Shown in pieces: positions 2,896-54,394 of a DNA stretch of 54,394 nt (the stretch's first letter is position 1; every line of letters starts with the position of its first letter). The position numbers were made by a program, and so were the translations under genes. The DNA comes from a virus (taxonomy: Duplodnaviria > Heunggongvirae > Uroviricota > Caudoviricetes). Under the pieces are notes generated by a model. That model was not told where the DNA came from and ran no database searches. It was given only the letters and a program-made list of their open reading frames with translations. The stretch is taken from IMG/VR virus record IMGVR_UViG_2541047753_000004; one strand, given 5' to 3'.

Positions 2896-3852
<957 letters not shown>

Positions 3853-3909: not shown

Positions 3910-4464
3910 TCATTTATCTCCGACCGGAAACTTCTTATACAGTGTCGATATACCAACATCATAGATGATCGCCACCTTCTGGCGAGGAACGCCTGATGCA
4001 ATTAATCGCCCGGCCTGCGCCCATTGTTCTGGTGTAAGTTTGGGACGACGTCCACCAATTCGTCCCTGTGCGCGAGCAGCTTCCAGTCCAGCTTTTGTTC
4101 GTTCAACAATCAGTTCTCGTTCCATTTCAGCCAGGGCACCCATCACATGAAAGAAAAAACGCCCCATCGGTGTGCTGGTATCAATAGCATCCGTCAGGCT
4201 GCGAAAATTAACGCCACGTTCGCGCAACTCCTCAACCAGAATGACCAGATGCCGCATACTACGCCCTAGCCGATCCAGCTTCCAGACAACCAGAGTGTCA
4301 CCTGCCGATAATGTCCTGAGCAGTTTTTTCAGTCCCGGCCTTTCGGACTTTGTACCGCTTATCTTGTCTTCAAAAATCAGCTCGCATCCTGCACAGTTCA
4401 GCGCATTACGTTGTAGATCTGTGTTCTGGTCATTTGTTGACACACGTACATAGCCAATAAGCAT
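3910..4464 (-). CDS. pin: Serine recombinase, DNA invertase Pin/Gin/Hin family
   Basis: MLIGYVRVSTNDQNTDLQRNAL... with catalytic Ser context and C-terminal HTH; 184 aa from MLIGY start; adjacent to inverted crossover sites. Confidence 0.9.
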   Translation of the reverse strand: MLIGYVRVSTNDQNTDLQRNALNCAGCELIFEDKISGTKSERPGLKKLLRTLSAGDTLVVWKLDRLGRSMRHLVILVEELRERGVNFRSLTDAIDTSTPMGRFFFHVMGALAEMERELIVERTKAGLEAARAQGRIGGRRPKLTPEQWAQAGRLIASGVPRQKVAIIYDVGISTLYKKFPVGDK

Positions 4465-4490
4465 GGTAGATCTCCCTGACAAAAGCAGGA

Positions 4491-4883
4491 ATGATGCCAT
4501 TTGCTCGTTATTTCTGCATTTTCATAAACGTTGGTTTGGGAGAAGGTTCAGCATTACCTGTTGGTGCACCTGCGCCTCAGCTTCCTGATATACCTACAAC
4601 TGTGTGGCTTAATTCCGTCCCAGCAGATCTTACTTCTGAAGACGGTTTAGATCTTCAAAGGGCTCACATGGCTGATCCACTGCCGTCTCTGGGCGGTGTA
4701 ATTATTTTTGCCAGGGCAGATTCGAGTGGGTGTGATACGGGATTTTCAACTCAGGGTTGTACTCCCGCAACTTTTAATGTTAGAGATTTACATGATGCTG
4801 GTGATAACCAGGTGCATATTAATTTCAATTCCAGTATCGCCGTAGCTGGTGTCGATGCTGTTTTTATTGCATTAGACTCATAA
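4491..4883 (+). CDS. Alternative tail-fibre C-terminal segment (silent in current orientation)
   Basis: ORF reads through the left crossover site (…GLGEGSALPV…); inversion would fuse it in frame to the constant fibre N-terminus at 6444-6721. Confidence 0.45.
   Translation: MMPFARYFCIFINVGLGEGSALPVGAPAPQLPDIPTTVWLNSVPADLTSEDGLDLQRAHMADPLPSLGGVIIFARADSSGCDTGFSTQGCTPATFNVRDLHDAGDNQVHINFNSSIAVAGVDAVFIALDS
4519..4544. repeat. Invertase crossover site (ix-like), left copy
   Basis: 26-bp site ttttcataaacgttggtttgggagaa; reverse complement TTCTCCCAAACC AA CGTTTATGAAAA resembles hix/gix-type sites. Confidence 0.7.
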
Positions 4884-36539: not shown

Positions 36540-36647
36540 AAATCAGCACGTACGAATTCAAACTCTGCCATAAAAGAACATATAAGTAATTTATTAACAT
36601 ATAGATATAGGTTATATTACAAATTGAAAAATTATTGGAGAGCAACA

Positions 36648-37514
36648 ATGAATCAAAATCCATTCTCATTCTATGACTTTCTTGGATATTTAATACCAGG
36701 TGGTTTTTTTATCCTATTAATGTATTTCTGTGGTTTGACATTCGATCTAGATATTGTTATTGACTTAAGTGAATTACTCAGAGGTCAAAGTCAAATCTTT
36801 GGCATTTTGAACTACGCTTCAATAGTTATTATATCTTATATAGCTGGACATTTTATTTCTATCACGTCAGCATTTTTTATCGAAAAATACATGAATAAAG
36901 AATTAGGATATCCTTCCAAATATCTATTTAAAAAATTGATAGATACCTCAGAAAGCATTTGTAGCCCATCATGCGATGAGAGAAGCGCTGATAAAAAAAC
37001 AAAAATAAAGAATCGCATAATCAAATGCGTATTATGTCCAATAATACTATGGGATTTTATAACACAAAAACTATGTTATTCTCAATCTCTACCATTTCAT
37101 TTAGCTAATACAACATGGTTAATGATCAAAGAAGGTTATGAGAAAAAGTTCATAACAAATCGCCAATTATTACAAGATAAAAACGGACTTGATGATGATC
37201 TCTTCAGATTGGCATATCATTATGTTTATGAGTTTTCAAAACAACATCAAACAAAAATTCAAAACTATGTTGCATTATATGGTTTTTGCAGAAACATATG
37301 TTTAATCTTTATAATTTCATTTTGGGTATCAGTTCCAACCTTTATTTATCGATTATGTACTCATAGTGATTATCTTTATAGTTTACTTTCAATAATGCTT
37401 AGCTTTTTCTTCGTCTATGTTTTCTATGTTGGTTTTGTTAAATTTTATAGAAGATATACTTTAGAAGTATTAATGGCATTTGCTGTACTTCAAAGTAACG
37501 ACACTATTCGTTAA
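36648..37514 (+). CDS. AT-rich multi-pass membrane protein (cargo gene, unknown function)
   Basis: 288 aa from ATG with GGAGAG SD; hydrophobic helices at both ends; strongly AT-rich relative to neighbours. Confidence 0.55.
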   Translation: MNQNPFSFYDFLGYLIPGGFFILLMYFCGLTFDLDIVIDLSELLRGQSQIFGILNYASIVIISYIAGHFISITSAFFIEKYMNKELGYPSKYLFKKLIDTSESICSPSCDERSADKKTKIKNRIIKCVLCPIILWDFITQKLCYSQSLPFHLANTTWLMIKEGYEKKFITNRQLLQDKNGLDDDLFRLAYHYVYEFSKQHQTKIQNYVALYGFCRNICLIFIISFWVSVPTFIYRLCTHSDYLYSLLSIMLSFFFVYVFYVGFVKFYRRYTLEVLMAFAVLQSNDTIR

Positions 37515-37555: not shown

Positions 37556-37762
37556 ATGCTGAACCTCGATTGTGTTCCTATCTCAACTTATTGCAAAGAA
37601 ACTGGCGAAACTCCTGAAGCAATAAACAAACGTGTACAGCGCGGTGTTTGGCGTGAAGGTGTTCAGGTTTTAAAGGTTGAAGGCGTTAAGGAGAGGTGGA
37701 TTGATCTTAGTGAGGTTGCAAAATGGGCCAGACAAAACTGCTCAAACTACCGCGCGGCGTAA
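37556..37762 (+). CDS. xis: Excisionase (Xis-like)
   Basis: Small basic protein immediately upstream of and overlapping int; start uncertain (37517, 37544 or 37556). Confidence 0.55.
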   Translation: MLNLDCVPISTYCKETGETPEAINKRVQRGVWREGVQVLKVEGVKERWIDLSEVAKWARQNCSNYRAA

Positions 37763-38895
37763 CAATCAGGAAACACCGCCAGGGAGAAACGATCAATATA
37801 ACTTTCACCTACAAAGGAGTTAGATGTCGTGAGCCGCTTTCCAATCTGGAAGTAACACCAAAGAACATTAAATACGCCGAGCGTACACTCGGCGAAATCC
37901 ATAATAAGATCGAAAGGGGAACATTCATTTATGCAGAATATTTTCCCCGTTCTGCTCGTTTGAAAATTTTTGGTAATGCTGCTGCAGGCAAAACGGTAAA
38001 GGTGTACCTGGACGAATATCTTGAAATCTGCGAAACAAGAAAACTTTCACCCTCTACGATTGGTGGCTATAAAAAATGCCGTAGTGCGTTAGCCTCACTT
38101 CACATTTGCCCTGCAAGTGAATTAACACCAGCAACCCTGAAAGCGTGGATTCAAAGCCAGAAAACAACCTTAAAAACCATTCGCAACCAGTTATCTTTCC
38201 TACGGTCAGCACTTGATGAAGCCGTGACCGATGGGGTACTTCAAATTAACCCCGTATCGTTAGTAACAGCTTCGCGCTACCAAAGTGATAAGTCAGAAGC
38301 AGAAAGCAGCTATGTGGTTGATCCGCTATCACCAGCAGAAGTTGATGCATTACTAGCAGCAGCCGGAAACAAACAATGGGAAAATCTGTTCCGGTTCGCC
38401 ATACATACAGGCCTGCGTAGTTCTGAATTATGTGCCCTACGATGGCATGATATCGACTTTGTTGGAAAAACAGCCCATGTTCAGAGCGCAAGTGTTGTCG
38501 GAGTTATCAAAGGAACAAAGACAAAAGCCGGTACCCGTAAAGTTGAACTGACTGAAGAAGCAATGTTGGCGTTGATAAACCAGAAGCCATTTACATTCAT
38601 GAAGGATGCTACTGTCTTTGAAGATCCAAAGACCAATAAACCCTGGGCAAGTGCTGATGCAATTAGGAAAAAAGCATGGGTGCCAACATTGCGAAAAGCA
38701 GGTATTCGTTACAGAAACCCATATCAAACCAGGCATACATTCGCCACCAGCCATATCAGCCGGGGAGCAAACCTGTTTTGGCTTGCGGCTCAAATGGGCC
38801 ATAAAGGGCCTGAAATGTTATTCAGGCACTATGGACAATACTTGAAAGAGTATGATGGGAGGGCAAGTATCAAGGATAAAAAGGCTTTATTTTAA
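37723..38895 (+). CDS. int: Tyrosine integrase (lambda Int family)
   Basis: 390 aa; C-terminal catalytic region R...HTFATSHISRGANLFWLAAQMGHKGPEMLFRHYGQY with conserved R, H-x-x-R and Tyr. Confidence 0.9.
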   Translation: MGQTKLLKLPRGVTIRKHRQGETINITFTYKGVRCREPLSNLEVTPKNIKYAERTLGEIHNKIERGTFIYAEYFPRSARLKIFGNAAAGKTVKVYLDEYLEICETRKLSPSTIGGYKKCRSALASLHICPASELTPATLKAWIQSQKTTLKTIRNQLSFLRSALDEAVTDGVLQINPVSLVTASRYQSDKSEAESSYVVDPLSPAEVDALLAAAGNKQWENLFRFAIHTGLRSSELCALRWHDIDFVGKTAHVQSASVVGVIKGTKTKAGTRKVELTEEAMLALINQKPFTFMKDATVFEDPKTNKPWASADAIRKKAWVPTLRKAGIRYRNPYQTRHTFATSHISRGANLFWLAAQMGHKGPEMLFRHYGQYLKEYDGRASIKDKKALF

Positions 38896-39486
38896 GTCAT
38901 TATGCCAATCGTCTACTGTTTGAAACCAAATTTTTAACCTTTGCATAAAGGTACGATCCTTTTTGGGAGGGTGGTACCTTTGAAAAGAAGTATGTAACGC
39001 TTCGATAACTCCCATACAAGCATCAATTACTTCTTGTGCTTTAACCGGGCGATCGGTATCTGAAAGCTTGTGAGCGACCTCACAATCCAGAGTTGCTTTC
39101 TCTAGTACAGATGAGAACACCTCGTCAGGTATATACAGTCCTCTGCTTTCCAAAATGCAAATCAGTTTGGAAACTTGTTGAGCTTTAGCCAAGATAGTTA
39201 ACAAGTATGAAACAGAAGCCTTTGTTCTATCCTTTTGCAACCTTAACAATCGATGCTTTGATGCTCTAATTTTAGGTTGAGTTGTCTGACTGAGCCAATA
39301 GTTAGAAGAAATATCAGAAATTTCAATAACTAACTTTGAAATAGCATCAATAATTGATTTCGATTCAGAACGTGTCGCCAGTTTTACAGAATTATTGTAC
39401 GCAACTCGCCATCCAATGAAAACTAAGCAGACGCTAACTACTGTGATACACCACGAATACTGTCCTATTTGTGCTACTAATGACAT
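38887..39486 (-). CDS. Single-pass membrane protein, unknown function (cargo operon gene 3)
   Basis: N-terminal TM helix WCITVVSVCLVFIGW, helical soluble domain; last gene of a 3-gene minus-strand operon; start at internal ATG 39486 (ORF track begins at TTG 39504). Confidence 0.5.
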   Translation of the reverse strand: MSLVAQIGQYSWCITVVSVCLVFIGWRVAYNNSVKLATRSESKSIIDAISKLVIEISDISSNYWLSQTTQPKIRASKHRLLRLQKDRTKASVSYLLTILAKAQQVSKLICILESRGLYIPDEVFSSVLEKATLDCEVAHKLSDTDRPVKAQEVIDACMGVIEALHTSFQRYHPPKKDRTFMQRLKIWFQTVDDWHNDLK

Positions 39487-39514
39487 TGGTTCCGTACTGA
39501 TCAACTATCGCCTC

Positions 39515-39841
39515 TTATACTCTTTCTGGTTGTGCTAAATCAATAAATTTATCAATCTGTTCTTTGTAGAACGGAACATCACTTTTTATAATCAAACGTG
39601 CTTTAACGTTGGCTTTAGGTATCCCTTCCTTACGGATGAGACCTCCAAACGCCTCTTCTAAGAAAGAGGAACCAACACCCAGTGCTATACCGCGAAAATC
39701 AACCACAATCTCCTGTTCAGTACCCTTCAGCGCAGGCACCAAAAACTCTCTACGAAATCTTTCCGCACTGTGTGGGCTATCCGTTGTGTAACGTCCGAAA
39801 GGTGTTCTGGAGAACTCCTTCGCTATGACGATATTTCTCAT
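39515..39841 (-). CDS. STAS-like small protein (DUF4325-like) (cargo operon gene 2)
   Basis: 108 aa; IVVDFRGIALGVGSSFLEEAFGG resembles the STAS / anti-sigma-antagonist core; AGGAG SD; starts 4 nt after upstream stop. Confidence 0.55.
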   Translation of the reverse strand: MRNIVIAKEFSRTPFGRYTTDSPHSAERFRREFLVPALKGTEQEIVVDFRGIALGVGSSFLEEAFGGLIRKEGIPKANVKARLIIKSDVPFYKEQIDKFIDLAQPERV

Positions 39842-39845
39842 AAAA

Positions 39846-40757
39846 TCATCTCCTGGGAACCAGCGACCATTGTAGTAAAGTACCCGGTATGTACTCAGCT
39901 AGCTTCTCACATCGAGGACTACTGTCATTAGAATTATAGCTATAACGAGCCCTTCCTGTTAGTATCAGAAGTGTCTCATTATCCTCACAACCTGCCCCAA
40001 TAGGTCTCTTGATATCTTCAGAGCCATTTCCCCGTCCGGAACCAACAAAGCGGGATTCCCCTACTAACATAGCTCTTTCCACAGAAGATACTTCGTTTTG
40101 AATGCTATGACCATCACCATTAGGCACGAAACTTCTATAAATCCCCAATCCAAGGTCACAAACGATAAAAACGACTTTATTTTCATCACGATTGAACCAA
40201 GCGCACTGCCACCATCGTTTACCTTTGAGAAGCTGAATATCTGACTCGAACCCCTCATCTTCATACGCATGATGAGAAACATTGAGCAAAGCTTCACTAA
40301 TCGCTGTCAGCAGTAAGCCTAACTGTTCATTATTAAGCAGAGCACTTTTCTGCAGCATGAGTACTGTTTCAACAATATGCTCGTAAGGTTCGACAGCTGA
40401 CTGAAAGTATCGTTCCTCCCTCGTAAGTGCATTCAGTTTCTCTTCTGTGCCAGCAAGCAAAGCACGAGCAAGTCCAGTACCAACGATCCATCTATGCCCA
40501 GATGGGTTATCATCCTTTTTAGGCCATTTAAAACGTATAAAATTAGGGTCCCGGGTTAAAAATTGAGCTCTATTTACTATGGCAAAGAACAGTACCGATG
40601 CCGCAGCTGAGGCAAATTTTACCTTGGACAAATCAACTATAACTCGACCTTTATTTTTTACTCCAATCGATTCAATCGAGTTGATGAAGTTCAATGTCCC
40701 AGCCCTAGAATCATCTGAGTAAATGCAAAATTTGCTTGGGGGTACCAGTATGGTCAT
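39846..40757 (-). CDS. GHKL-type ATPase/kinase with N-terminal STAS-like region (cargo operon gene 1)
   Basis: Bergerat-fold motifs: N-box EALLNVSHHAY, G1 DLGLGI, G2 GSGRGNG; N-terminal RVIVDLSKVKFASAAASVLFFAI resembles STAS beta-strand/helix. Confidence 0.6.
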   Translation of the reverse strand: MTILVPPSKFCIYSDDSRAGTLNFINSIESIGVKNKGRVIVDLSKVKFASAAASVLFFAIVNRAQFLTRDPNFIRFKWPKKDDNPSGHRWIVGTGLARALLAGTEEKLNALTREERYFQSAVEPYEHIVETVLMLQKSALLNNEQLGLLLTAISEALLNVSHHAYEDEGFESDIQLLKGKRWWQCAWFNRDENKVVFIVCDLGLGIYRSFVPNGDGHSIQNEVSSVERAMLVGESRFVGSGRGNGSEDIKRPIGAGCEDNETLLILTGRARYSYNSNDSSPRCEKLAEYIPGTLLQWSLVPRR

Positions 40758-40909
40758 AGCGATGTCATTCTTATACGATGGATTTATAGATTATCTACTA
40801 TTCATAGTTGGTTATGAAGACTGGGATATAACAGTAAAAGATACGTGTAAGATCCGCAAGATAGTTAATGTCGAAAAAAATCATTAATTACATCAAGTTA
40901 GTGATATTT

Positions 40910-40941
40910 GGACTCGGGTTCAACTCCCGCCAGCTCCACCA
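40910..40941 (+). other. ssrA: 3'-terminal ~32 nt of ssrA (tmRNA): attachment-site repeat
   Basis: GGACTCGGGTTCAACTCCCGCCAGCTCCACCA matches the ssrA 3' end (T-arm, acceptor, CCA) with one mismatch; upstream sequence is not ssrA. Confidence 0.75.
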
Positions 40942-41125: not shown

Positions 41126-42319
41126 GTGGCACGTACAACACGCCCTCTTACTAACACTGAACTATCACGTGCTAAAGCAACTGAAAAGGATCTAACGCTA
41201 CATGATGGTGATGGGCTTTTTCTACTCATAAAAACGAACGGAAGGAAGTTGTGGCGTTTCCGATACCAGAAGCCTGTATCAAAACAGAGAACCATGATTA
41301 GTTTAGGAACGTTCCCCGCCCTATCTCTGGCTGAGGCCAGAAACGTGCGTGCTGAGTATCTTTCCTTATTAGCCCGGGGTATTGATCCACAAACATACAG
41401 TAAGCAAGTCTCAGAACATCAACAGATTGCGATTGATAGTATTTTTTCAAAAGTTGCCACAAATTGGTTTGCCATAAAAAGCAATAACGTCACACCTGAT
41501 TATGCAAAGGATATATGGCGATCCTTAGAGAGGGACATTTTCCCTGCTATCGGTGAGATTCCTGTTCAGGAAATAAAAGCCCGCACATTAATTGAAGCCC
41601 TAGAGCCAATTAAAGCTCGTGGGGCACTTGAGACTGTTCGTCGTTTAGTACAACGTATTAATGAAATTATGATTTATGCTGTTAATACTGGTCTGATAGA
41701 TGCTAACCCTGCTTCAGGCATTGGTATGGCATTTGAAAAACCTAAAAAACAGCACATGCCAACGCTTAGACCTGAAGAATTACCGAAACTCATGCGTTCA
41801 ATAACAATGTCTAATTTATCTATTCCAACTCGTTGTTTGATTGAATGGCAACTCTTAACACTTGTACGCCCTGCAGAAGCTTCCAATGCAAAGTGGATAG
41901 AGATCGATTTCGAAGCTAAACTATGGATAATACCAGCCAATAGAATGAAGGCAAAGCGGGAACATATTGTTCCATTATCACTTCAGACATTAGATATTCT
42001 TGAAATTATGAAGCCAATCAGTTCACATCGAGAATATATTTTTCCTAGCAGGAATAACCCCAATCAACCAATGAACAGTCAGACGGCAAATGCAGCCTTA
42101 AAGCGCATCGGTTATGGTGGTAAGTTGGTTGCACACGGACTGCGTTCGATAGCAAGTACAGCAATGAATGAAGCTGGTATAAATCCAGATATTATCGAAG
42201 CAGCACTTTCCCATTGTGATAAAAATGAGGTTAGAAGAGCATATAATCGAACAACCTACTTGGAACAAAGAAAAGAGCTTATGAATTGGTGGGGTAGTTT
42301 CATTTCAAAAAACAAATAA
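41126..42319 (+). CDS. int: P4-type tyrosine integrase
   Basis: 397 aa, GTG start, N-terminal MARTTRPLT...DGDGL...LGTFPALSLAEAR typical of P4/CP4-57 IntA; adjacent to ssrA 3' end. Confidence 0.9.
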   Translation: MARTTRPLTNTELSRAKATEKDLTLHDGDGLFLLIKTNGRKLWRFRYQKPVSKQRTMISLGTFPALSLAEARNVRAEYLSLLARGIDPQTYSKQVSEHQQIAIDSIFSKVATNWFAIKSNNVTPDYAKDIWRSLERDIFPAIGEIPVQEIKARTLIEALEPIKARGALETVRRLVQRINEIMIYAVNTGLIDANPASGIGMAFEKPKKQHMPTLRPEELPKLMRSITMSNLSIPTRCLIEWQLLTLVRPAEASNAKWIEIDFEAKLWIIPANRMKAKREHIVPLSLQTLDILEIMKPISSHREYIFPSRNNPNQPMNSQTANAALKRIGYGGKLVAHGLRSIASTAMNEAGINPDIIEAALSHCDKNEVRRAYNRTTYLEQRKELMNWWGSFISKNK

Positions 42320-42329
42320 GGATATAGTG

Positions 42330-43445
42330 ATGAATAATAAAGATTTTCCATGCAAAGCCTCAAATATCTATGATAAAAATATAAATTTTTTATTTGGCTC
42401 AGGCTCCTCTGCTTCATATATTCCTACTCTCTATCTAGATAAAAACACTACTTATGAAACATTACTTACACATGAGGATTGTGAGGGTGTCAAGGACTTC
42501 ATATTATGTTCTTATTTCAATAATATCATTAGAAAAACATTTTGTGTTAAACCTAATAGTGAAGACAAAAAATATAATTCTACTTTAGCAAACTATAGCT
42601 ACTTTATTGATGAACTAATCAAATTATTAGAGAAAAAAGGGGCAAATCAAATAAGGCGAGCGAATATTTTTACAACAAATTATGATCTTTTTTTCGAAAC
42701 TGCGGCTGATGATATTTTAAATAATAAAACATTTCATTTCAATGACGGTGGTCTAGGTTTCAAAAGCCGGAAATTGAACATTAGTAATTTTCATATTACT
42801 GCTTGGCATCAAGGTACGCATGATATGTACAAACATGAAATTCCAACAGTAAACTTAATAAAAATGCATGGTTCTGTTTCTTGGTGTAGAGATATTAATG
42901 AAACGATTAGTATTAATTACACTCAAGAAGAACCACCAAAGTTTAGACTAGATACAAAAAAAGACATTAATGATTTAGTCACCACCTTAAACGAAACAAG
43001 CGATAATCTCGTTAGTTATTTAAATTTATCTACAAGCGATCAAGAAACACTTCAAGAATTTAAATCTTATTACAACAACTTAGCTATAGTTAGCCCAACT
43101 AAAGAAAAATTTTCTGAAACTGTTTTTCAACAACATTATTACCAATGTTTACGATTGCTAAGTTATGAATTAGAGAAACCACAAACTGTATTAATTTGTT
43201 TTGGTTTTTCTTTTCAAGATGAACACATACGTGAGATTATAAAAAGATCATTAAGTAACCCTACTCTTAAGGTCTTTGTTTTTTGCTACTCAAAATCCAG
43301 CATGGAAAGTATACAGCACATTATCAATGACCAACGAATAACCTATATTCTTCCTATAGAAGATGATCATACAATTTCATTTAAACCGTTTATAGATAGA
43401 GTATTTAGATCTGAACACGGAGATTGGATTACATGGAAGAACTAA
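42330..43445 (+). CDS. SIR2-like domain protein (NADase-type defence effector)
   Basis: FLFGSGSS (Rossmann Gly-rich), TTNYDLFFE, MHGSVSW motifs; AT-rich; AAGGA SD. Confidence 0.7.
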   Translation: MNNKDFPCKASNIYDKNINFLFGSGSSASYIPTLYLDKNTTYETLLTHEDCEGVKDFILCSYFNNIIRKTFCVKPNSEDKKYNSTLANYSYFIDELIKLLEKKGANQIRRANIFTTNYDLFFETAADDILNNKTFHFNDGGLGFKSRKLNISNFHITAWHQGTHDMYKHEIPTVNLIKMHGSVSWCRDINETISINYTQEEPPKFRLDTKKDINDLVTTLNETSDNLVSYLNLSTSDQETLQEFKSYYNNLAIVSPTKEKFSETVFQQHYYQCLRLLSYELEKPQTVLICFGFSFQDEHIREIIKRSLSNPTLKVFVFCYSKSSMESIQHIINDQRITYILPIEDDHTISFKPFIDRVFRSEHGDWITWKN

Positions 43446-45205
43446 TTGTTGGTAATGTTACCCAAATAAAGGGCACAACAGTAAGGGCCAAAATCAATCA
43501 TGACTTTTTTCAGTCAACATACTTTCATAAAGGTAAAATACTACGAGGTATCTCTATAAATGAATTTGTTTTGATTAAAAAAGGTTATCACGATATCGTC
43601 GGAAAGATTATTGGTGAAGAAATTGTTGAAAACATCAATATTAGAAGCGATGAAATTGAACAAAAAAAATATGACCGTTTTGTAGAACTGAATATTTTAG
43701 GGTATTTTTTTGAGAGTTCATTTTATTCCGGTATAAAATTTTTACCAATGATAAATGACAGCTTACACTTAATTTCAGACGAGAAGATATCAGAAATATA
43801 TAAGTTTAGCAAAAACACTAAAGCACCTTTAATAAACATAGGGAAATCTATGTTAGAGGAGTTGCCAATTAACATACCAATAAATGGTATTTTTAATTCA
43901 CACATAGGCATATTTGGAAACACTGGAAGTGGCAAGTCCAACACTCTTGCAAAACTTTATCACTCTCTAATAAACCTTATAACAACAAAAGAAAGAGTTA
44001 TATCAAAATCAAGTTTTGTTTTGATTGATTTTAATGGTGAATACAGCACATTTGCTACGTCATTTCCAGATTTGTGCGAACAAGTCAATCTCAACACAAA
44101 GAATTCCGGTGATAAACTAACTTTCACTGATGATGAATTTTGGGATGATGAATTATTATCGGTATTGTTTTCTGCAACTGAAAAAACTCAAAAGCCATTT
44201 CTTAGTCATTTAATTAAAAATAGAGAAAAATATAATGGTAAATTGGAGGATTACTTACAAACAACTATCCACAGTATGTTTTCTCCTAATCCACACAGGG
44301 AAACAATAAATTTATTAAAAAGCCTTGCCCCTTACTTTTCAGAGAGAGCACAGGGTAAAATACTTGAAGAGTTATCACAATTCTCATGGCATTCTGGGCA
44401 AAATAAGTATTTGCACTCAAAATACAACTTCATTGATAAAATGGAAGATGCTTTACAGGCTTTAGATGCAACATATAAATCCAAGTTTAAGTTAAACAGC
44501 GTTTTTGATGAAGTTGCAATCCGATCTATTCTACAACTAATTAATTCAGTATCACGTAATTATGTACAATATGATCATATATATCCGCTAATTAATAAAA
44601 TAACGGCAATGACTCCTGCCCTATCCAAAGTAATTAATATCAGAAACGAAACAAAAAATAAAAAACCTATATATATAGTGTCATTAAAAGAGTGCAATCA
44701 ATTAATCAAAAAAACCATTCCAATGATGCTTGCAAAATGTTCATTCTTAGAGCACAAGTCATCTAAAAATACAAAGGAAAGCTTCCACCTAATTATAGAT
44801 GAAGCACACAACATATTGTCTGAAACATCTGTCAGAGAGGCGGAAACATGGAAAGATTATAGGCTTGAGTTATTTGAGGAAATAATAAAAGAGGGAAGGA
44901 AGTTTGGGTTCTTCGTTACAATTTCGAGTCAACGACCTTTTGACATCTCTCCCACAATTGTTTCCCAACTTCATAATTATTTTATTCATCGATTAGTGAA
45001 CGAAAATGATTTGTTTTTGTTAAAAAATACTTTAAGCACCCTTGATGCGGCATCAAGATCACTAATTCCAACACTTCCTCCTGGTGGGTGTATAGTTTCA
45101 GGAACAGCTTTCCACACCCCATTACTTGTTCAAATCGACAGATTAGCTGAGGAAAATGCTCCTAACAGCGATACTCTTGATTTAGAAAAATTGTGGGATA
45201 TTTAA
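43424..45205 (+). CDS. HerA-like ATPase (DUF87)
   Basis: Walker A GIFGNTGSGKSNT, Walker B LIIDEAHN; overlaps SIR2 gene by 22 nt. Confidence 0.75.
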   Translation: MDYMEELIVGNVTQIKGTTVRAKINHDFFQSTYFHKGKILRGISINEFVLIKKGYHDIVGKIIGEEIVENINIRSDEIEQKKYDRFVELNILGYFFESSFYSGIKFLPMINDSLHLISDEKISEIYKFSKNTKAPLINIGKSMLEELPINIPINGIFNSHIGIFGNTGSGKSNTLAKLYHSLINLITTKERVISKSSFVLIDFNGEYSTFATSFPDLCEQVNLNTKNSGDKLTFTDDEFWDDELLSVLFSATEKTQKPFLSHLIKNREKYNGKLEDYLQTTIHSMFSPNPHRETINLLKSLAPYFSERAQGKILEELSQFSWHSGQNKYLHSKYNFIDKMEDALQALDATYKSKFKLNSVFDEVAIRSILQLINSVSRNYVQYDHIYPLINKITAMTPALSKVINIRNETKNKKPIYIVSLKECNQLIKKTIPMMLAKCSFLEHKSSKNTKESFHLIIDEAHNILSETSVREAETWKDYRLELFEEIIKEGRKFGFFVTISSQRPFDISPTIVSQLHNYFIHRLVNENDLFLLKNTLSTLDAASRSLIPTLPPGGCIVSGTAFHTPLLVQIDRLAEENAPNSDTLDLEKLWDI

Positions 45206-45219
45206 TATCGCTACGCGCA

Positions 45220-45238
45220 GTGCTTTCCCCGCCTCGCC
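45220..45238. other. cos cohesive-end sequence (P2/P4 type)
   Basis: gtgctttccccgcctcgcc is the reverse complement of the 19-nt GGCGAGGCGGGGAAAGCAC I recall for P2/P4. Confidence 0.7.
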
Positions 45239-45402
45239 CGCACGCTTTGCGGGGCGGTTTTAATGCAGTTGCACTGACACGCTCAGACCGCGCCGGGAAT
45301 GGCGCGGTCTGCAGAAAATGAGGCAGGGAAACGCATGCAAAGCCATGCACCTTATCGATGCATGGCTTTTTTCAGTAAAAACAGGCGGATTTTCGGGAAA
45401 TT

Positions 45403-45975
45403 TTACACAGACTGACGTGATGCCAGTTGCGCACTTTTACGCGAAAAAATCATGTTCTGCGCAGGGGTAAATTTTTCACGGCTGTCGTCCACCGAAGCCG
45501 CGTCAGGCCTGAATCCGATGGTCGTTAAAATGTCGCTATCCTGTGCGGAATAATTAATTTTTTCCCCCTTCGCAAGCCAGGACAGAAGGGCTTCACGCAG
45601 GGCATCTGTGGCACGCTGTATGGCACAGTTTCGGGCAATGGCCGTCAGCTCACTGTAGCCCATCAGCTCCGGTGCCAGTGCCGCCGCCAGTGCTGTGCCG
45701 TGCTGCTGCATAAAATCATTCAGCCGGTCGCGGATGCTGATGTGCTGAACGGCTTCATGCGAACGAATATAACGACCAGCGGCCTGATTCACCTGCCATT
45801 TTCTGACTTCGATAATATTGCGTAATTCGTCCAGGCGACTGACGTTTCTGCCTTCTCCTGACAGAAGCCGCAGATATTCCTGTTCGGCCGCTGCCAGCTC
45901 ATTTTTGCGTTGCAGCCATGCTGCTTTGTTATTCTGACAGGTGTCAAAGGCCTGCTGTAAGGCTGTGCTTTCCAT
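45403..45975 (-). CDS. psu: Polarity suppression protein Psu
   Basis: 190 aa, length and sequence as recalled for P4 Psu. Confidence 0.85.
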   Translation of the reverse strand: MESTALQQAFDTCQNNKAAWLQRKNELAAAEQEYLRLLSGEGRNVSRLDELRNIIEVRKWQVNQAAGRYIRSHEAVQHISIRDRLNDFMQQHGTALAAALAPELMGYSELTAIARNCAIQRATDALREALLSWLAKGEKINYSAQDSDILTTIGFRPDAASVDDSREKFTPAQNMIFSRKSAQLASRQSV

Positions 45976-46048
45976 CGTTATCTCTTTCTCATCATGCTGA
46001 AGAATAAAAATACGGTGTGCGGCGACGGCCGGTGTTAACCGGCAGCCC

Positions 46049-46549
46049 TCATTCCAGACGCAGCGAATATGATTGTGTTTTTAAGCGTACTGGCGGCAGT
46101 TCCTGTTTTTCATGCAGGCTTTCTGCCAGTTCGTCCGGCGTGACCGGGCGGACAATGAAACGGTTGATGGTCTGAAGCGTTTTAAACACCAGACCACAGC
46201 CCGGATCCGTGCACACATAAAAACGCTCGGTGACTTCCTGAGACAGACGCCGCGATGTTCTTGACAGTGCAAGGCCTTTACATCTCCGACAACAATATCC
46301 GGTAACAAGCATTCTTTTCGGGCGTTTCATACTGCCGGAGGCTGACGTCAGTGAATCGCGGTATCTCTGTTTGCCTGAAATGTATTCCATTCCTGAATCT
46401 TTACTGTCAGAGAAAAAGCTTTCACTCGCTTCAAATGTCGCAGAGCAATAAATATTCCGGCACTGTGCAATCATTATCTTGGTGCCATCGTCCATGAAAT
46501 GTGCGCGGCGGGTGTGAGCAACATGACCACACGACGGGCAGTAAATCAT
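46049..46549 (-). CDS. delta: Late gene activator Delta (Ogr/Delta zinc-finger family)
   Basis: 166 aa with two CxxC...CxxC zinc-finger units (MIYCPSCGH..., ...CCRRCKG...CTDPGCG). Confidence 0.85.
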   Translation of the reverse strand: MIYCPSCGHVAHTRRAHFMDDGTKIMIAQCRNIYCSATFEASESFFSDSKDSGMEYISGKQRYRDSLTSASGSMKRPKRMLVTGYCCRRCKGLALSRTSRRLSQEVTERFYVCTDPGCGLVFKTLQTINRFIVRPVTPDELAESLHEKQELPPVRLKTQSYSLRLE

Positions 46550-47280
46550 GACAGCAGTCCTCTGGCCTTAAGCACTGCTCCCTGCTGGTCTATTTTGTCC
46601 TGCCACACCTTGCGCTGTGCCGGTGTGCCTGCCACCTCATAATCCATGTGAGGAAGTGTTGCCGCTGACAGTCCGGTCAGCCGGAGAACCGGCTCGCCGG
46701 TGAGGCTGATTTGCATCTGTTTAATTTTCTGTTCCAGCGATGATTTCACCTGCTGCATGACAGCCTTTTCCGGTGCGACGTAGCCCTGATGGCCGGTGGT
46801 GTTGGCGAGCGGATTTTCCTGTACCAGAATGCTCAGATGCATTGCCCGGACAAGCGCCTCACAGGTTTCATTCAGGGCGTGTTCCAGCTCATGCTCTGCA
46901 TACAGACTCAGAAGGTGATGATGTGCCTTCCGGTAGGCGGTGGCCGTGCTGTCACACGCCCCTTTCAGGCGTTCGCGTTCAAAATTCAGCACCACGGCCA
47001 GATTGTCATATTCCTGTACCAGTTCCCGGCGTGCCACGCGCTCAATGTGGCGCTGTTTCAGCTCGTCGCTCAGGACACCACCGGCTGCACGAAAGGCCGT
47101 GCGCCAGTCGTCAGCGTCGTTTCCGTCGGCCTGCGCCAGCGCATTTTTTTCCTGCTCTGCCCGTTCAATGGCCGTGACGGTCTCATCCATCAGGCGGGCG
47201 TTCTCAAGATGGGCGGCTCTGGCCTTTTCCAGTTGTGCCAGTGCGGGTTGCAGATATTCAGGGATGGTGTTGTCAGACAT
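46546..47280 (-). CDS. sid: Capsid size determination protein Sid
   Basis: 244 aa from MSDNTIPEY; position in psu-delta-sid operon. Confidence 0.8.
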   Translation of the reverse strand: MSDNTIPEYLQPALAQLEKARAAHLENARLMDETVTAIERAEQEKNALAQADGNDADDWRTAFRAAGGVLSDELKQRHIERVARRELVQEYDNLAVVLNFERERLKGACDSTATAYRKAHHHLLSLYAEHELEHALNETCEALVRAMHLSILVQENPLANTTGHQGYVAPEKAVMQQVKSSLEQKIKQMQISLTGEPVLRLTGLSAATLPHMDYEVAGTPAQRKVWQDKIDQQGAVLKARGLLS

Positions 47281-47298
47281 TTTCCGGCTCCTCGTCAC

Positions 47299-47832
47299 TT
47301 CAGGTTAAGAAAATTGTGACGTACACCGGACAACAACACGACGCATTGCAGATGTGCCAGCCCTGACACAGGAGACTCATCCTCAGACCGGCAAGCCAGG
47401 AAAAGGTCGCAGGAAAAACCGGCTTACTGTTTGTTTTTTTATATTTTACTGTTCACCTCTGTTCACCATAAGAAAAAAGACAAGTAATACAGTAAGTTAA
47501 ATGGTGAACAATCGCAGTAATGACTGTTCACCGTCTGTTCACCACTGTTCACCCGTTGATGGGCTTTTTGTGCTGTTTATTACTGTTTGTTTTTATTAAT
47601 TCGCCGGGAATGAATAAGAAAAAACGATTTGTATTTCACTATAAAAATTACGAATTGCTTTAAGTGGCTTTAAATGACTTTAAGTGGAGATGAACAAAAA
47701 ACACACAAGCATTATAAGACTGCCGGAACAAATCCCCCCTGTTGCGTCTGCTGAAAATATTCACAAAATAAAGCGCTACCCGAAGCCGGACGGACTTATC
47801 CGGTGCTGTATGGACATTAACGAGGTAGCCCG
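47299..47832. promoter_or_regulatory. P4-like Psid/PLL/PLE promoter and immunity region (expected site of CI RNA)
   Basis: Intergenic region between sid and orf88 by P4 gene order; no RNA gene could be delimited by eye. Confidence 0.35.
47449..47553. repeat. ori-like cluster of TGTTCACC octamers (alpha-binding type I repeats)
   Basis: Six copies of TGTTCACC/GGTGAACA within ~105 bp, ~4.8 kb from crr. Confidence 0.65.
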
Positions 47833-48099
47833 ATGCAAGCTGTTTTTTCTTCCCCGTCTCCCGCCCCTGTGACGCCACTGATGCCGCTGCCGGACATCAC
47901 GCAGGAGCGTTTTTTACGTCTGCCGGAAGTGATGCACCTGTGCGGCCTGTCACGCTCGACCATCTATGAACTCATCCGTAAGGGGGAATTTCCGCCGCAG
48001 GTGAGTCTTGGCGGTAAAAATGTGGCCTGGCTGCACTCTGAAGTCACTGCATGGATGGCCGGGCGCATTGCCGGACGCAAACGGGGGTACGACGCATGA
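47833..48099 (+). CDS. AlpA-family HTH regulator (P4 orf88-like)
   Basis: 88 aa; [29 protein letters not shown]; GAGG SD. Confidence 0.7.
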
Positions 48100-48695
48100 T
48101 GATGCCCGCTCTGCAAAAACGCCCTTTTTCTGGCTTGCCTTTTTCCGGCATTTGCGGATATAGTTTTTCCGCTGCCGCAAAATCGGCAGCCGGGCGTGGA
48201 AACCCGAGCAATTCACAGGCGACATATGACGCGCCATGCGTCTTTTTTTGTGTCGCAATCAACGCCACAGAGCGCCAGATTATGGTGTGGTGTGTGGTCA
48301 GTCGTGCAGATGGCATTCCGTGCATCCTGCCCGCGTCCGCTCATTATGCCGCAGAGTCAATGGTAGCTCAGGCGGGGCAGCCTCCGGGCTGGCCGGTATC
48401 CTGTGAAGCCGGTATTTCCACCCCCGTCTGGGCTATCGCCATCGAGCGTGGAAACTCCGGCGATAGCGTTATTTGCTATTCACAGGAGGCTGCCATCATG
48501 GCTACAACCCTTACCCCCTCACACCCTGAATTTGTCTTTGTGTTTGCGGCTGTCCGTCGCGCAGACCGTCATCCCCGTATCTGTATGCTTCGCACCGTCG
48601 CCGGTGATGAACGCAGTGCCCGCCGTTCCCTTGTCCGTGACTATGTGCTCTCCCTTGCTGCCCGTCTGCCGGTGGTGGAGGTGTCCCGTGCGTAA
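48096..48695 (+). CDS. Hypothetical protein (P4 orf199-like)
   Basis: 199 aa from MMMPALQ; size and position. Confidence 0.45.
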
Positions 48696-48975
48696 TAAAA
48701 AAGCCCCTCAGACCGTCTCAGCGCGTCATGACGCCCGTGAACACCTCAGCATTGAGGCTTACCATAAGCTCAACCGCGCCAGCGCCGTATCCCGGTTTGT
48801 TGGGGGTGATTTGATTCACCGTGAACTCTCCGGCCTGCATCAGCTCTACATTCCGCATATTTTCAGCTACCTGAATGAAGATATTGATTTTGTGCTGAAT
48901 GAGCTGAAAGCCAAAGGCCTGTGCCGCGATTTTCTCGCCCAGCAGAAAGACCGGGGAGACAGGACGCATGTTTGA
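48688..48975 (+). CDS. eps: Epsilon-like derepression protein (putative)
   Basis: 95 aa from GTG with GGAGG 7 nt upstream, overlapping upstream stop; position before orf151. Confidence 0.45.
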
Positions 48976-49423
48976 TTTTCCCCAGCCCGGTGAGATTTAC
49001 CGTTCTGCCGGTTTTCCCGATGTGGCCGTGGTCGGCATTCTGGAAGACGGTATTCCGTGGGAAATGCCGTACCGCTGCCCGGACATTGTCTGGAACCCGT
49101 ACCGCCGTAAATTCAGTATCCTTGTGCGTATCCTCGCTGACGGGCGCACCACAGACATCCCGCTGGGGCGTTTTCTGCGGGAATTTACCTGTGACCGTCC
49201 TGACCTGTTTAAACGCAGCCCCGTAAACCGGCATGCGGTACTGAAAGAAATGGCCGGAGACCCGGAATTACAGAAATGGCGGGAGAAATATCTGGATATT
49301 TACCCGCAGGACACTGTTCCGGCCAGCCGGGCGGCACCGGTGGCGCGGGAATGGCGGGAAATTCCCCGCACGGAGCCTGACCCGGAAATCACCCCGGATA
49401 ACAGTTACCGCAATTATCTGTAA
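48968..49423 (+). CDS. P4 orf151-like protein
   Basis: 151 aa, size and position. Confidence 0.6.
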   Translation: MFDFPQPGEIYRSAGFPDVAVVGILEDGIPWEMPYRCPDIVWNPYRRKFSILVRILADGRTTDIPLGRFLREFTCDRPDLFKRSPVNRHAVLKEMAGDPELQKWREKYLDIYPQDTVPASRAAPVAREWREIPRTEPDPEITPDNSYRNYL

Positions 49424-49558
49424 TTAAAAAACGACACCCGAAAAATTAAATGTGCGTATTCGCGCAGGGATACGCACGTCTTCAGGAGACGCAGATATGC
49501 CTTATCAGTTAATGCAACCGGCACGGAATGCAGTCATCTGTCACAGGGAGGAAAGCAA

Positions 49559-49879
49559 ATGAAAACACCCTTACCGCCCGTCTTACGCGCTGCCCTTTAC
49601 CGTCGCGCTGTCGCCTGTGCCTGGCTGACCGTGTGCGAACGTCAGCACCGCTACCCGCATCTCACCCTTGAGTCACTGGAGGCGGCCATCGCCGCTGAGC
49701 TGGAAGGCTTTTATCTGCGCCAGCACGGTGAGGAAAAAGGGCGTCAGATAGCCTGTGCCCTGCTGGAAGATTTAATGGAATCCGGCCCCCTGAAGGCCGC
49801 GCCGTCGCTGTCCTTTCTCGGGCTGGTTGTGATGGATGAACTCTGTGCCCGTCACATAAAAGCGCCGGTACTGCACTGA
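49559..49879 (+). CDS. P4 orf106-like protein
   Basis: 106 aa immediately upstream of alpha. Confidence 0.55.
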
Positions 49880-49893
49880 AGGAGAACAACACC

Positions 49894-52227
49894 ATGAAAA
49901 TGAACGTAACCGCCACCGTCAGCCATGCGCTCGGCCACTGGCCGCGTATTCTCCCGGCGCTGGGGATTCAGGTGCTGAAGAACCGTCATCAGCCCTGTCC
50001 GGTCTGTGGCGGGAGTGACCGCTTCCGTTTTGATGACAGGGAGGGGCGTGGCACCTGGTACTGCAATCAGTGTGGTGCCGGTGACGGCCTGAAACTGGTT
50101 GAAAAGGTGTTTGGTGTTTCCCCGTCCGACGCGGCCGCAAAGGTGGCTGCCGTGACCGGCAGCCTGCCACCGGCTGACCCGGCAGTGACGGCCGCCGCCG
50201 TTGCTGAAACAGAAGCCGCCCGGAAGAACGCCGCCGCACTGGCACAAACCCTGATGGCGAAAACCCGTCCCGGAACCGGTAACGCCTACCTGACCCGCAA
50301 GGGCTTTCCCGGCCGGGAATGCCGGATGCTGACCGGCACACACAGAGCCGGTGGCGTGAGCTGGCGCGCCGGTGACCTTGTGGTGCCACTGTATGACGAC
50401 AGCGGCGAACTGGTTAACCTTCAGTTAATCAGTGCTGACGGCCGTAAGCGCACCCTGAAAGGCGGACAGGTCAGGGGCACCTGTCACATCCTTGAAGGAC
50501 AGAATCAGACCGGAAAACGTCTGTGGATAGCGGAGGGATACGCGACCGCACTTACCGTGCATCACCTGACCGGTGAAACGGTGATGGTGGCGCTTTCTTC
50601 CGTGAACCTCCTTTCTCTGGCCAGCCTTGCCCGGCAGAAGCATCCGGCCTGTCAGATTGTCCTTGCCGCAGACCGTGACCTCAGCGGTGACGGCCAGAAA
50701 AAAGCCGCCGCAGCCGCAGATGCGTGTGAAGGTGTTGTTGCCCTGCCGCCGGTCTTCGGTGACTGGAATGATGCCTTCACGCAGTACGGCGGGGAAGCCA
50801 CCCGTAAGGCCATTTACGATGCCATCCGGCCACCGGCTGAAAGCCCGTTCGACACCATGAGCGAAGCGGAGTTTTCCGCCATGAGTACCAGCGAAAAGGC
50901 CATGCGTATCTATGAGCATTACGGCGAGGCGCTCGCGGTCGATGCCAACGGCCAGCTTCTGTCCCGCTATGAAAATGGTGTCTGGAAGGTGCTGCCGCCA
51001 CAGGACTTTGCCCGGGATGTGGCCGGGCTGTTTCAGCGGCTGCGCGCGCCGTTCTCCTCCGGGAAGGTGGCCTCCGTGGTGGACACCCTGAAGCTGATTA
51101 TTCCGCAGCAGGAAGCCCCCTCCCGCCGCCTGATTGGCTTTCGTAACGGCGTGCTCGACACGCAGAACGGCACGTTCCACCCGCACAGTCCGTCACACTG
51201 GATGCGCACCCTGTGCGATGTGGATTTCACCCCACCGGTGGAAGGGGAAACGCTGGAAACCCACGCCCCCGCGTTCTGGCGCTGGCTTGACCGTGCCGCC
51301 GGTGGCCGTGCGGAAAAACGCGACGTGATTCTGGCCGCACTGTTTATGGTGCTGGCAAACCGCTACGACTGGCAGCTCTTTCTGGAGGTGACCGGTCCCG
51401 GCGGCAGCGGCAAAAGTATCATGGCCGAAATAGCCACCCTGCTGGCCGGGGAGGATAACGCCACGTCGGCCACCATTGAGACGCTGGAATCCCCGCGTGA
51501 ACGTGCCGCGTTAACTGGCTTCTCACTGATACGCCTGCCGGACCAGGAAAAATGGAGCGGCGACGGTGCCGGACTCAAGGCCATCACCGGCGGCGATGCG
51601 GTGTCCGTGGACCCGAAATACCGGGATGCGTACTCCACGCATATCCCGGCGGTGATTCTGGCCGTGAACAATAACCCGATGCGCTTCACCGACCGCAGCG
51701 GCGGCGTGTCACGCCGGCGGGTGATTATTCACTTCCCGGAACAGATAGCCCCGCAGGAGCGCGACCCGCAGCTTAAGGACAAAATCACCCGCGAGCTGGC
51801 GGTCATCGTGCGTCACCTGATGCAGAAATTCAGCGACCCGATGCTCGCCCGGTCACTGCTTCAGTCCCAGCAGAACTCAGACGAGGCGCTGAACATCAAA
51901 CGGGATGCCGACCCGACGTTTGATTTTATCGGCTATCTGGAAACCCTGCCGCAGACCAGCGGCATGTATATGGGGAACGCCAGTATCATCCCGCGCAATT
52001 ACCGTAAATACCTCTATCACGCCTATCTGGCCTACATGGAGGCAAACGGCTACCGGAATGTACTCAGTCTGAAAATGTTCGGGCTGGGGCTGCCGGTGAT
52101 GCTGAAGGAATACGGACTGAATTACGAGAAGCGCCATACCAAACAGGGGATACAGACCAACCTGACGCTGAAAGAGGAAAGCTACGGCGACTGGCTGCCA
52201 AAATGTGACGACCCTGCGACAGCCTGA
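49894..52227 (+). CDS. alpha: Alpha primase-helicase
   Basis: 777 aa; N-terminal zinc-binding CPVCGGSDRFRFDD...YCNQCG primase region, central Walker A GPGGSGKS helicase region. Confidence 0.9.
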   Translation: MKMNVTATVSHALGHWPRILPALGIQVLKNRHQPCPVCGGSDRFRFDDREGRGTWYCNQCGAGDGLKLVEKVFGVSPSDAAAKVAAVTGSLPPADPAVTAAAVAETEAARKNAAALAQTLMAKTRPGTGNAYLTRKGFPGRECRMLTGTHRAGGVSWRAGDLVVPLYDDSGELVNLQLISADGRKRTLKGGQVRGTCHILEGQNQTGKRLWIAEGYATALTVHHLTGETVMVALSSVNLLSLASLARQKHPACQIVLAADRDLSGDGQKKAAAAADACEGVVALPPVFGDWNDAFTQYGGEATRKAIYDAIRPPAESPFDTMSEAEFSAMSTSEKAMRIYEHYGEALAVDANGQLLSRYENGVWKVLPPQDFARDVAGLFQRLRAPFSSGKVASVVDTLKLIIPQQEAPSRRLIGFRNGVLDTQNGTFHPHSPSHWMRTLCDVDFTPPVEGETLETHAPAFWRWLDRAAGGRAEKRDVILAALFMVLANRYDWQLFLEVTGPGGSGKSIMAEIATLLAGEDNATSATIETLESPRERAALTGFSLIRLPDQEKWSGDGAGLKAITGGDAVSVDPKYRDAYSTHIPAVILAVNNNPMRFTDRSGGVSRRRVIIHFPEQIAPQERDPQLKDKITRELAVIVRHLMQKFSDPMLARSLLQSQQNSDEALNIKRDADPTFDFIGYLETLPQTSGMYMGNASIIPRNYRKYLYHAYLAYMEANGYRNVLSLKMFGLGLPVMLKEYGLNYEKRHTKQGIQTNLTLKEESYGDWLPKCDDPATA

Positions 52228-52278
52228 CCCACCTGACCGGCATCTGCCGGTCTTTTTTTATCCCTGAATTCCCCGAAG

Positions 52279-52551
52279 GTGAACAATCCACTGTTCACCC
52301 TTCACCGTATATTCACCTGTTATCACACTGAAATTAAAAGAGAAAAACGAAAGGTGAACAGTGTGAACAATCAAATCAAAAAAAACTTTTTTTCTCCCTG
52401 TGTGATTTCAGTACGGGGGATTAATCACCGGTATGAGTCACACCGGCAGAATGCCGGAGGTGAAGAATCGAATGTTCACCCTTCACCCATTATTCACCAC
52501 CTATCATACTGAAATAAAAGGAGAAAAAAGAAAGGTGAACAGTGTGAACAG
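52279..52551. repeat. crr (cis replication region): two ~120-bp direct repeats rich in TGTTCACC octamers
   Basis: Duplicated block ...TGTTCACCCTTCACC...ATTCACC...GAAAGGTGAACAGTGTGAACA separated by ~60 bp, downstream of alpha. Confidence 0.75.
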
Positions 52552-52712
52552 TTCTTTCGAAAAAAAATTTTTTTTCTGTACGATATAGCATCAATCCAAG
52601 TAAAAATGCGCTTTCATTTCACATTAACTTACAGCCATTGGTATACGATTAGGTATACGTACAAAAACTGAATTAAACAAAATCATTAAAAATCAAAACA
52701 ATACAGCATTTA

Positions 52713-52735
52713 TTCAAACTCCGCCAGCCCACCAA
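52713..52735 (+). other. Degenerate ssrA 3'-end repeat (candidate right junction of the satellite)
   Basis: ttcaaactccgccagcccaccaa aligns to ssrA TTCAACTCCCGCCAGCTCCACCA with about 4 differences. Confidence 0.4.
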
Positions 52736-52861
52736 TCATGATTGGACGGTGTAAGGACTACACCAACAAAAACAGGAAGTTATAAGTCTCAGCAGGACAC
52801 CGACCAGACGGTGAGGAGACAAAAAAGGATACGCAACGGAGTCGCGACTCCCTATGACATT

Positions 52862-52890
52862 AAAGCCCGCTGATGCGGGCTTTTTTATTG
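52862..52890 (+). terminator. Intrinsic terminator
   Basis: AAAGCCCGC tgat GCGGGC TTTTTT. Confidence 0.55.
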
Positions 52891-53317
52891 GTCCTGACCC
52901 GCCCTGAATAGAATTCATCCAATTACAGTCCAGACATATACAGTATCCCTCAGCTCAGTATCAGCTTCTCGACAAATGGTCACTGTTATTTACCCGTTGC
53001 CAGAAAGAGAATAATTTGCCCCCATAGCCAGCCTTCCCGGAATCTGTATATTCATTAATATTGTTATCGATTCCATCAAGTAACATAGGTTGGATGCGAT
53101 TGATCTTACTCACATTAGTCGACACGGAACTCAGTAAGTTGAACTCTGGAAAAGCAGTTTAAATAGCATTTAAACAAATGCCACCAGTTCGAAAAAGAGT
53201 ATAAGCACACTTAATATATTGTTTTAATTATTCATTTCCTTTCAACCCAATTCTTATCCCTCACATTATTTGTTATTAATTTGTTGTTTTTGATCACAAT
53301 AAGAAAACAATATGTAA

Positions 53318-54394
<1,077 letters not shown>

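Follow-up and report, generated by a model that had tools for sequence, protein, structure and literature searches.

The IMG/VR virus record IMGVR_UViG_2541047753_000004 (Caudoviricetes), a stretch of 54,394 nucleotides referred to here in its full length as the window, carries three tightly packed open reading frames (ORFs) on its minus strand between positions 38887 and 40757. Gene 1 (39846–40757) encodes a protein of 303 residues, composed of a STAS domain (residues ~1–120) and an anti-sigma-factor-type GHKL serine kinase domain (~134–303), and resembles the kinase VapK introduced below. Gene 2 (39515–39841) encodes a stand-alone DUF4325 STAS-like protein of 108 residues, a putative kinase substrate and inhibitor with Ser58 as candidate phospho-acceptor. 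Gene 3 (38887–39504) encodes a membrane-anchored putative effector of 205 residues when read from a TTG codon and of 199 residues when read from the ATG at 39486. The operon-like arrangement and its coordinates agree with a preliminary description made from the sequence of the window alone. Genes 1 and 2 are spaced by 4 nt, and the terminal part of gene 1 contains an AGGAGA; the distance from gene 2 to gene 3 is 28 nt to the ATG, the start used in RefSeq, or 10 nt to the TTG. We prefer the TTG as the probable start of gene 3, because a GAGG lies 6 nt upstream of it and homologues begin with MI at the same position. The three ORFs are real genes and not chance ORFs, since they are annotated in RefSeq (as hypothetical, STAS-like and hypothetical proteins) and the collinear trio was present in all 38 IMG/VR loci and in 10 others.

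The cassette lies between the integrase 3′ end and an ssrA-derived junction, where the preliminary description had placed it. The tyrosine integrase of the prophage (37723–38895, plus strand; phrog_1 integrase, E 3e-63) is convergent with gene 3, overlaps it by 9 nt and defines a cargo slot between integrase gene and attachment site (int–att). At the other end, 150 nt of non-coding DNA (40758–40907) separate the start of gene 1 from a 3′ fragment of ssrA, the transfer-messenger RNA (tmRNA) gene (40908–40941, plus strand), at the prophage/chromosome junction on the attR side. The ssrA 3′ end GGTTCAACTCCCGCCAGCTCCACCA was found as an exact 25-nt match at 40917–40941, with 0 expected by chance, and no full tmRNA gene was present within the window. 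A consensus scan of the non-coding region gave a candidate promoter on the minus strand (−35 TTCATA, 17-nt spacer, −10 GATAAT; 40818–40790). Promoter-like sites were no more numerous than in shuffled sequence in the promoter and terminator scan, and the operon promoter is a candidate only. The AT-richness noted earlier is reflected in a GC content of 41.1% for the cassette versus 52.3% for the prophage body. The proposed equivalence with the slot of lit in e14 also holds, lit being convergent with intE and located between int and att. The slot is a variable cargo site, and sister prophages with 94–98% identical integrases hold other cargo there. With integrases of the same family, a pair of loci (L017, 5687–6875; L018, 5927–7849) showed two versions, one with two hypothetical proteins of 127 and 271 residues that are unrelated to the trio and one with a ParA-family gene and two hypotheticals; these uncharacterized candidates could have other moron or defense functions. 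A third version, in a sister prophage, is a ~52%-identical allele of the same trio.

Both domains recognized at the outset in gene 1 were recovered. The Bergerat-fold motifs are located at residues 155–165 (EALLNVSHHAY), 201–206 (DLGLGI) and 239–245 (GSGRGNG), the N-box SEALLNVSHHAY being the RsbW/SpoIIAB signature, and E155, N159, H163, D201, G203, G205, R242, G243 and G245 were invariant in sets of 59 and of 31 homologues. The AlphaFold2 model computed from the 59-homologue input was confident (predicted local distance difference test, pLDDT, 87; predicted template modeling score, pTM, 0.88); the protein begins directly with a STAS fold, and there is no N-terminal helix-turn-helix (HTH). Because this internal STAS domain carries alanines (A51-A52-A53) at the position of the phospho-serine of antagonists, it is not a substrate in its own right. 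On a strand of the kinase domain, a motif R-W-W-Q-x-x-W (residues 181–187; 40197–40217) is invariant in the clade, and K/R-W-W is kept even in the 25%-identical relatives from Acinetobacter and a Rhodospirillaceae element. This motif, which VapK does not have, may serve to bind a ligand or gene 3. Of the 2368 protein clusters that the gene 1 profile matched at E ≤ 0.001, 102 also reached E ≤ 1e-30. When the profile and gene 2 were compared with the sequences of the PDB, nothing useful was retrieved, the best match being RsbW at E 0.3, and VapS and CapS went undetected. Distant gene 1 relatives of 350–390 residues (L011, 3842–4957; L014, 3905–5014) have an extra Lys/Arg-rich N-terminal stretch of ~50 residues, which sits where the kinase CapK has its HTH and could be a nucleic-acid-binding tail.

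Gene 2, expected to be a stand-alone STAS-like protein, matched Pfam DUF4325 (PF14213, "STAS-like domain") with 51.9 bits (E 6e-14), well above the cut-off of 23 bits. DUF4325 is its only domain, and a winged-helix domain is not present. Ten residues (S58, S59, F60, E62, E63, F65, G66, G67, L68 and R70) were invariant in 28 of 28 distinct sequences, and an N-terminal extension is conserved at F10, S11, P14, F15, G16 and R17.

The closest described system is VapKSC, a three-gene operon in which sensing falls to VapK, a 302-residue STAS-GHKL kinase, and the effector is the product of the third gene, the PIN toxin VapC (Chambers et al., EMBO J 2026, PMC13373217). VapS, the STAS antitoxin of 116 residues, has its phospho-site S48 buried in the toxin interface, and its C-terminal helix (94–116) reaches the toxin active site and blocks VapC (PMC13373217). 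The same work describes CapK, an HTH-STAS-GHKL kinase that is switched on by single-stranded DNA and phosphorylates CapS, a STAS repressor with a winged HTH; the single-stranded DNA that triggers CapK and VapK arises from DNA damage or phage infection (PMC13373217). We took the VapK and VapS sequences from the supplementary model file of that paper. VapS itself proved to be a DUF4325 protein (Pfam, E 2.7e-17), and an older survey of PIN domains had described the coupling of PIN genes with genes for DUF4325 proteins. The gene 1 profile aligned with VapK over 237 columns and both domains (hhalign, E 1.3e-4), and a broader hidden Markov model (HMM) built from 188 sequences scored VapK with 56.9 bits (E 1e-19 in a single comparison). 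Judged by sequence, genes 1 and 2 are distant members of the VapK and VapS families, because VapK aligns over both domains, VapS belongs to DUF4325, and the invariant S58 of gene 2 aligns with VapS S48.

On the same grounds we regard the cassette as a relative of VapKSC in which a membrane protein replaces the PIN nuclease, a link that had not been made before. In the VapKSC catalogue, E. coli is represented by strain E4736 alone, and neither a membrane variant nor DUF4325 is mentioned in the paper (PMC13373217). Literature searches on DUF4325, "STAS-like domain", GHKL with STAS and phage, and the three WP accessions given below returned no paper describing the function of the trio. NCBIfam gave no assignment for the three proteins, and PADLOC-DB v2 (2023) gave no match at E ≤ 1 for any of them, in line with the earlier view that the trio falls outside the named defense systems. 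That view itself can no longer be upheld, given the homology of genes 1 and 2 to VapK and VapS and a previous screen in which the trio had already been included.

Gene 3 contains one hydrophobic helix (residues 17–35), in agreement with its description as a single-pass membrane protein. Because basic residues follow this single helix, nearly the whole protein is predicted to be cytoplasmic. The juxtamembrane region reads G31 W32 ... T44 R45 x E47 x K49 ... D53, and homologues have in common a membrane helix ending in G-W, the juxtamembrane T-R-x-E-x-K ... D and a C-terminal Y/H-x-P; the third proteins are homologous to one another across most of the sampled range. Comparison with Pfam, NCBIfam and PADLOC gave no family match, and none to PIN domains. 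The AlphaFold2 model (pLDDT 80.8) consists of helices throughout, and the membrane helix continues into a bundle. DNA identity within the gene drops abruptly after about codon 68: in loci L026–L028, genes 1 and 2 are 70–90% identical in DNA, and gene 3 is ~70% identical through the membrane helix and juxtamembrane motif, then 34–60% over the part corresponding to 38887–39300. This pattern suggests diversifying selection on, or allele swapping of, the cytoplasmic bundle.

The three-gene order was collinear, often with overlapping genes, in every locus examined. Besides the 38 IMG/VR viral contigs, in 17 of which a related integrase follows gene 3 directly in convergent orientation, the trio was found in genomes of Salmonella, Photobacterium, Rheinheimera and Acinetobacter baumannii, in a Rhodospirillaceae element and with four metagenomic kinase relatives. 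In Photobacterium, Rheinheimera and Acinetobacter it lies outside prophages, with no integrase nearby, and adjoins NERD or type IV restriction genes. The trio of A. baumannii adjoins a variable slot, which holds a PvuRts1I-like/SRA type IV restriction gene in one strain (L011, 7428–8836) and PfkB/nucleoside-deoxyribosyltransferase and QueC-like genes in another (L012, 4471–6583). A published table for the Francisella phage KIRK lists adjacent proteins of 293 residues, 112 residues (DUF4325) and 125 residues (membrane protein) in the repressor–integrase interval, a likeness that goes by the listed descriptions only. Among 5426 complete E. coli genomes, the cassette was located on the chromosome and was nearly identical; genes 2 and 3 always co-occurred (126 genomes), and gene 1 was of full length in 125. 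Carriers include UTI89, NU14, UM146, APEC O18 and the type strain ATCC 11775. The cassette is known from prophages and IMG/VR contigs and not from sequenced free phages, because a tblastn search of the INPHARED GenBank phage genomes with gene 1 returned no match.

Proteins identical to the three described here (WP_000060412.1, WP_001244589.1 and WP_000154254.1) appear in Table S6 of the DefensePredictor study as transcription unit VPUS, whose length of 1871 nt equals that of the cassette (Science 2026, PMC13092281). VPUS reached a maximum defense log-odds of 5.75 and was placed in the category "structural defense homolog". For the test, a low-copy plasmid carried the unit together with the native promoter predicted for it, and MG1655 with this plasmid was exposed to 24 phages, a design in which 42 of 94 units were protective (PMC13092281).

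Taken together, we put a probability of roughly 45% on the cassette being a prophage-borne, three-component, kinase-gated module of toxin–antitoxin type, built like VapKSC but for a membrane protein that replaces the PIN nuclease. Its established part consists of the identity of the domains, the homology of genes 1 and 2 to VapK and VapS, a serine and catalytic residues that do not vary, the obligate linkage of the three genes and the cargo-slot setting; the function of the cassette is unproven, and mechanism and phenotype are what we infer. By analogy with VapKSC, gene 2 would bind and restrain the cytoplasmic part of gene 3 in the resting cell. A trigger, possibly single-stranded DNA generated by DNA damage or infection, would switch on the gene 1 kinase, which would phosphorylate gene 2 at Ser58 and so cause it to release gene 3. 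Freed gene 3 would then act at the inner membrane, plausibly by oligomerizing and depolarizing or damaging it, with the outcome that growth stops or infection is aborted. A broader proposal, which we consider doubtful, is that the cassette represents a large unrecognized branch of kinase-gated tripartite toxin–antitoxin or immune modules. In such a branch, a VapK-like kinase and a DUF4325 protein would control a dedicated, co-evolving, membrane-anchored helical protein whose hypervariable cytoplasmic bundle meets phage proteins, either as a sensor or as the target of phage inhibitors, and the switch would couple an intracellular cue to membrane permeabilization.

Several observations weigh against the VapKSC-type module. 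VPUS was scored as not defensive (defensive = FALSE, no system name), with no protection against any of the 24 phages (PMC13092281). We take this as real evidence against a broad anti-phage role; it is not decisive, because VapKSC itself protected against a single phage, Bas42 (PMC13373217), and expression or host background may also explain the result. Gene 1 scored below the gathering cut-off of Pfam HATPase_c_2 (PF13581; 22.9 against 27.4 bits, E 9e-5), so that of the family matches anticipated in the preliminary description the one for gene 2 stood and this one fell short, PF13581 being matched in precomputed annotation by some gene 1 orthologues. In the alignment, VapS runs on for ~20 residues past the end of gene 2 and its orthologues, which do not have the C-terminal helix; the mode of inhibition can therefore not equal that of VapS. 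Sensing of single-stranded DNA is linked to a conserved aromatic residue, F54 in VapK and W68 in CapK (PMC13373217). Of 31 sequences, 26 have F or Y at position 48 of gene 1, but VapK F54 falls one column away in the HMM alignment, the placement is approximate, and such sensing is not established for gene 1. In structure comparison, the gene 3 model resembles nothing more specific than a generic helical bundle, and no fold typical of a toxin or an enzyme was recognizable. Finally, gene 3 is the fastest-evolving of the three, a pattern compatible with a sensor, too: its mean identity to the window is 41%, compared to 70% for gene 2 and 58% for gene 1, and it lies below gene 1 in each of 37 loci.

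Gene 3 as a sensor or membrane anchor, with its variable bundle detecting a phage or envelope cue and activating the gene 1 kinase via gene 2 to phosphorylate other host or phage proteins, is an unlikely reading. Besides its rapid evolution and the collapse of DNA identity after about codon 68, it can draw on the non-enzymatic fold and on the best structural neighbors, among which are sensor domains from histidine kinases and chemoreceptors that form four-helix bundles. These matches are, however, generic helical bundles, with designed bundles scoring highest, the kinase senses and the third gene is the effector in the homologous VapKSC, and the cassette encodes no separate effector.

Similarly improbable is a tripartite toxin–antitoxin module responsive to DNA damage or stress that serves addiction or stabilization to the benefit of the prophage, with no direct anti-phage role. 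The failure of VPUS to protect would be explained, the trio lies at the prophage end, its genes 2 and 3 always co-occur, and the VapKSC authors themselves point to a blurred line between stress response and immunity (PMC13373217). Against this, the trio also occurs outside prophages beside NERD and type IV restriction genes, the hot-spot with divergent alleles is typical of defense cargo, and a panel of 24 phages can miss a specificity as narrow as that of VapKSC.

Membrane exclusion proteins are common among the products of int–att morons in temperate phages, and gene 3 is by its model membrane-anchored and non-enzymatic. That it acts in superinfection exclusion or envelope modification, with genes 1 and 2 only regulating its activity and with no cell killing, is nevertheless less probable still: its predicted topology is nearly all cytoplasmic, unlike that of exclusion proteins facing the periplasm, no protection was seen in the 24-phage screen, and the trio also exists outside prophages. 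A transcriptional regulator pair of the CapK/CapS type controlling neighbor genes shares the logic of STAS-GHKL kinase and STAS substrate and is very improbable, since genes 1 and 2 have no DNA-binding domain (gene 1 no N-terminal HTH, the 108 residues of gene 2 only DUF4325 and no winged helix) and the next gene after the trio is the convergent integrase and not a downstream immune operon; we rejected it, as we did a classical sigma-factor partner switch, for which no sigma factor or phosphatase is present.

Other features of the window and of related loci were recorded alongside. Between a yfdR-like gene and the excisionase and integrase, a 296-residue ORF with 28.3% GC and several hydrophobic segments (36624–37514, plus strand) looks like a second moron; it matched phrog_12528, no Pfam family and, weakly, Csx27 in PADLOC (a type VI-B CRISPR-associated membrane protein, E 1.4e-5), and sister prophages carry at this position either the same ORF or two small phage genes. 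The window is well supplied with known defense genes, and its left end holds a second defense cluster (1–3852) with an EcoRII-type restriction enzyme (1–1209), a cytosine methylase (1244–2719, minus strand) and a PD-T4-3 homologue (3028–3852; PADLOC E 2.7e-140), which a resolvase/invertase adjoins at 3910–4500. A P4-like satellite (41126–54394) follows the ssrA fragment on its right, as a tandem insertion at the same ssrA site. Its components are an integrase (41126–42319), a SIR2 and HerA defense pair in a hot-spot of 30.9% GC (42327–45205), Psu (45403–45975), the isrK and C4 antisense RNAs (48158–48443) and a primase-helicase (49894–52227). In strain 0-4, an island beside the prophage (L001, 16164–19632) encodes a 572-residue "ATP-binding protein" paired with a 582-residue "response regulator receiver domain" protein, and strain 1500 has a receiver-domain gene at the equivalent relative position. 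A HATPase + REC candidate is named in a DefensePredictor figure legend and may represent a pair of this type.

If the VapKSC-type model holds true, the CapK/VapK kinase and STAS switch, described in 2026, would be a general control device plugged onto different effectors, namely a transcription factor, a nuclease and, in the present cassette, a membrane protein. The branch is not small, with 2368 clusters matching the kinase profile and every sampled relative showing the same trio, and its carriage by the well-studied pathogens UTI89, NU14 and APEC O18 and by the E. coli type strain makes it directly testable. The model also supplies a mechanistic hypothesis for a candidate that was negative in a large defense screen, and it points to DNA damage as a candidate trigger.

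In comparison with known systems, the cassette has the slot and orientation in common with Lit of e14 and other int–att morons, lying convergent with the integrase between int and att, but the proteins are unrelated, Lit being a peptidase. With SpoIIAB and RsbW, gene 1 shares the nature of a GHKL serine kinase with N, G1 and G2 boxes. It differs from the SpoIIAB-SpoIIAA and RsbW-RsbV pairs in carrying its own, non-phosphorylatable STAS domain and in having a DUF4325 protein as partner instead of a canonical STAS protein, and none of the three genes of the cassette matched a sigma factor or a PP2C phosphatase. CapK-CapS likewise pairs a STAS-GHKL kinase with a STAS-domain partner, which CapK phosphorylates on a conserved serine, whereas the kinase of the cassette has no HTH, its substrate no winged-helix domain and its neighborhood no regulated downstream immune operon. 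The likeness to VapKSC extends to three genes in the same order, to a kinase of ~300 residues homologous over both domains, to a substrate of ~110 residues from the same Pfam family with the conserved serine at the same position, and to a location near other defense genes, although pairwise sequence similarity is very low. VapKSC protects against a phage, whereas no phage protection was shown for the cassette; gene 1 has its own tryptophan-rich clade motif, gene 2 a conserved N-terminal extension in place of the C-terminal helix of VapS, and the third gene encodes a single-pass, helical membrane protein and not a PIN nuclease. What was known already is thus the type of kinase-STAS switch, from VapKSC, and the nomination of the trio by machine learning with one test that gave no phenotype; what is new is the membrane-protein variant.

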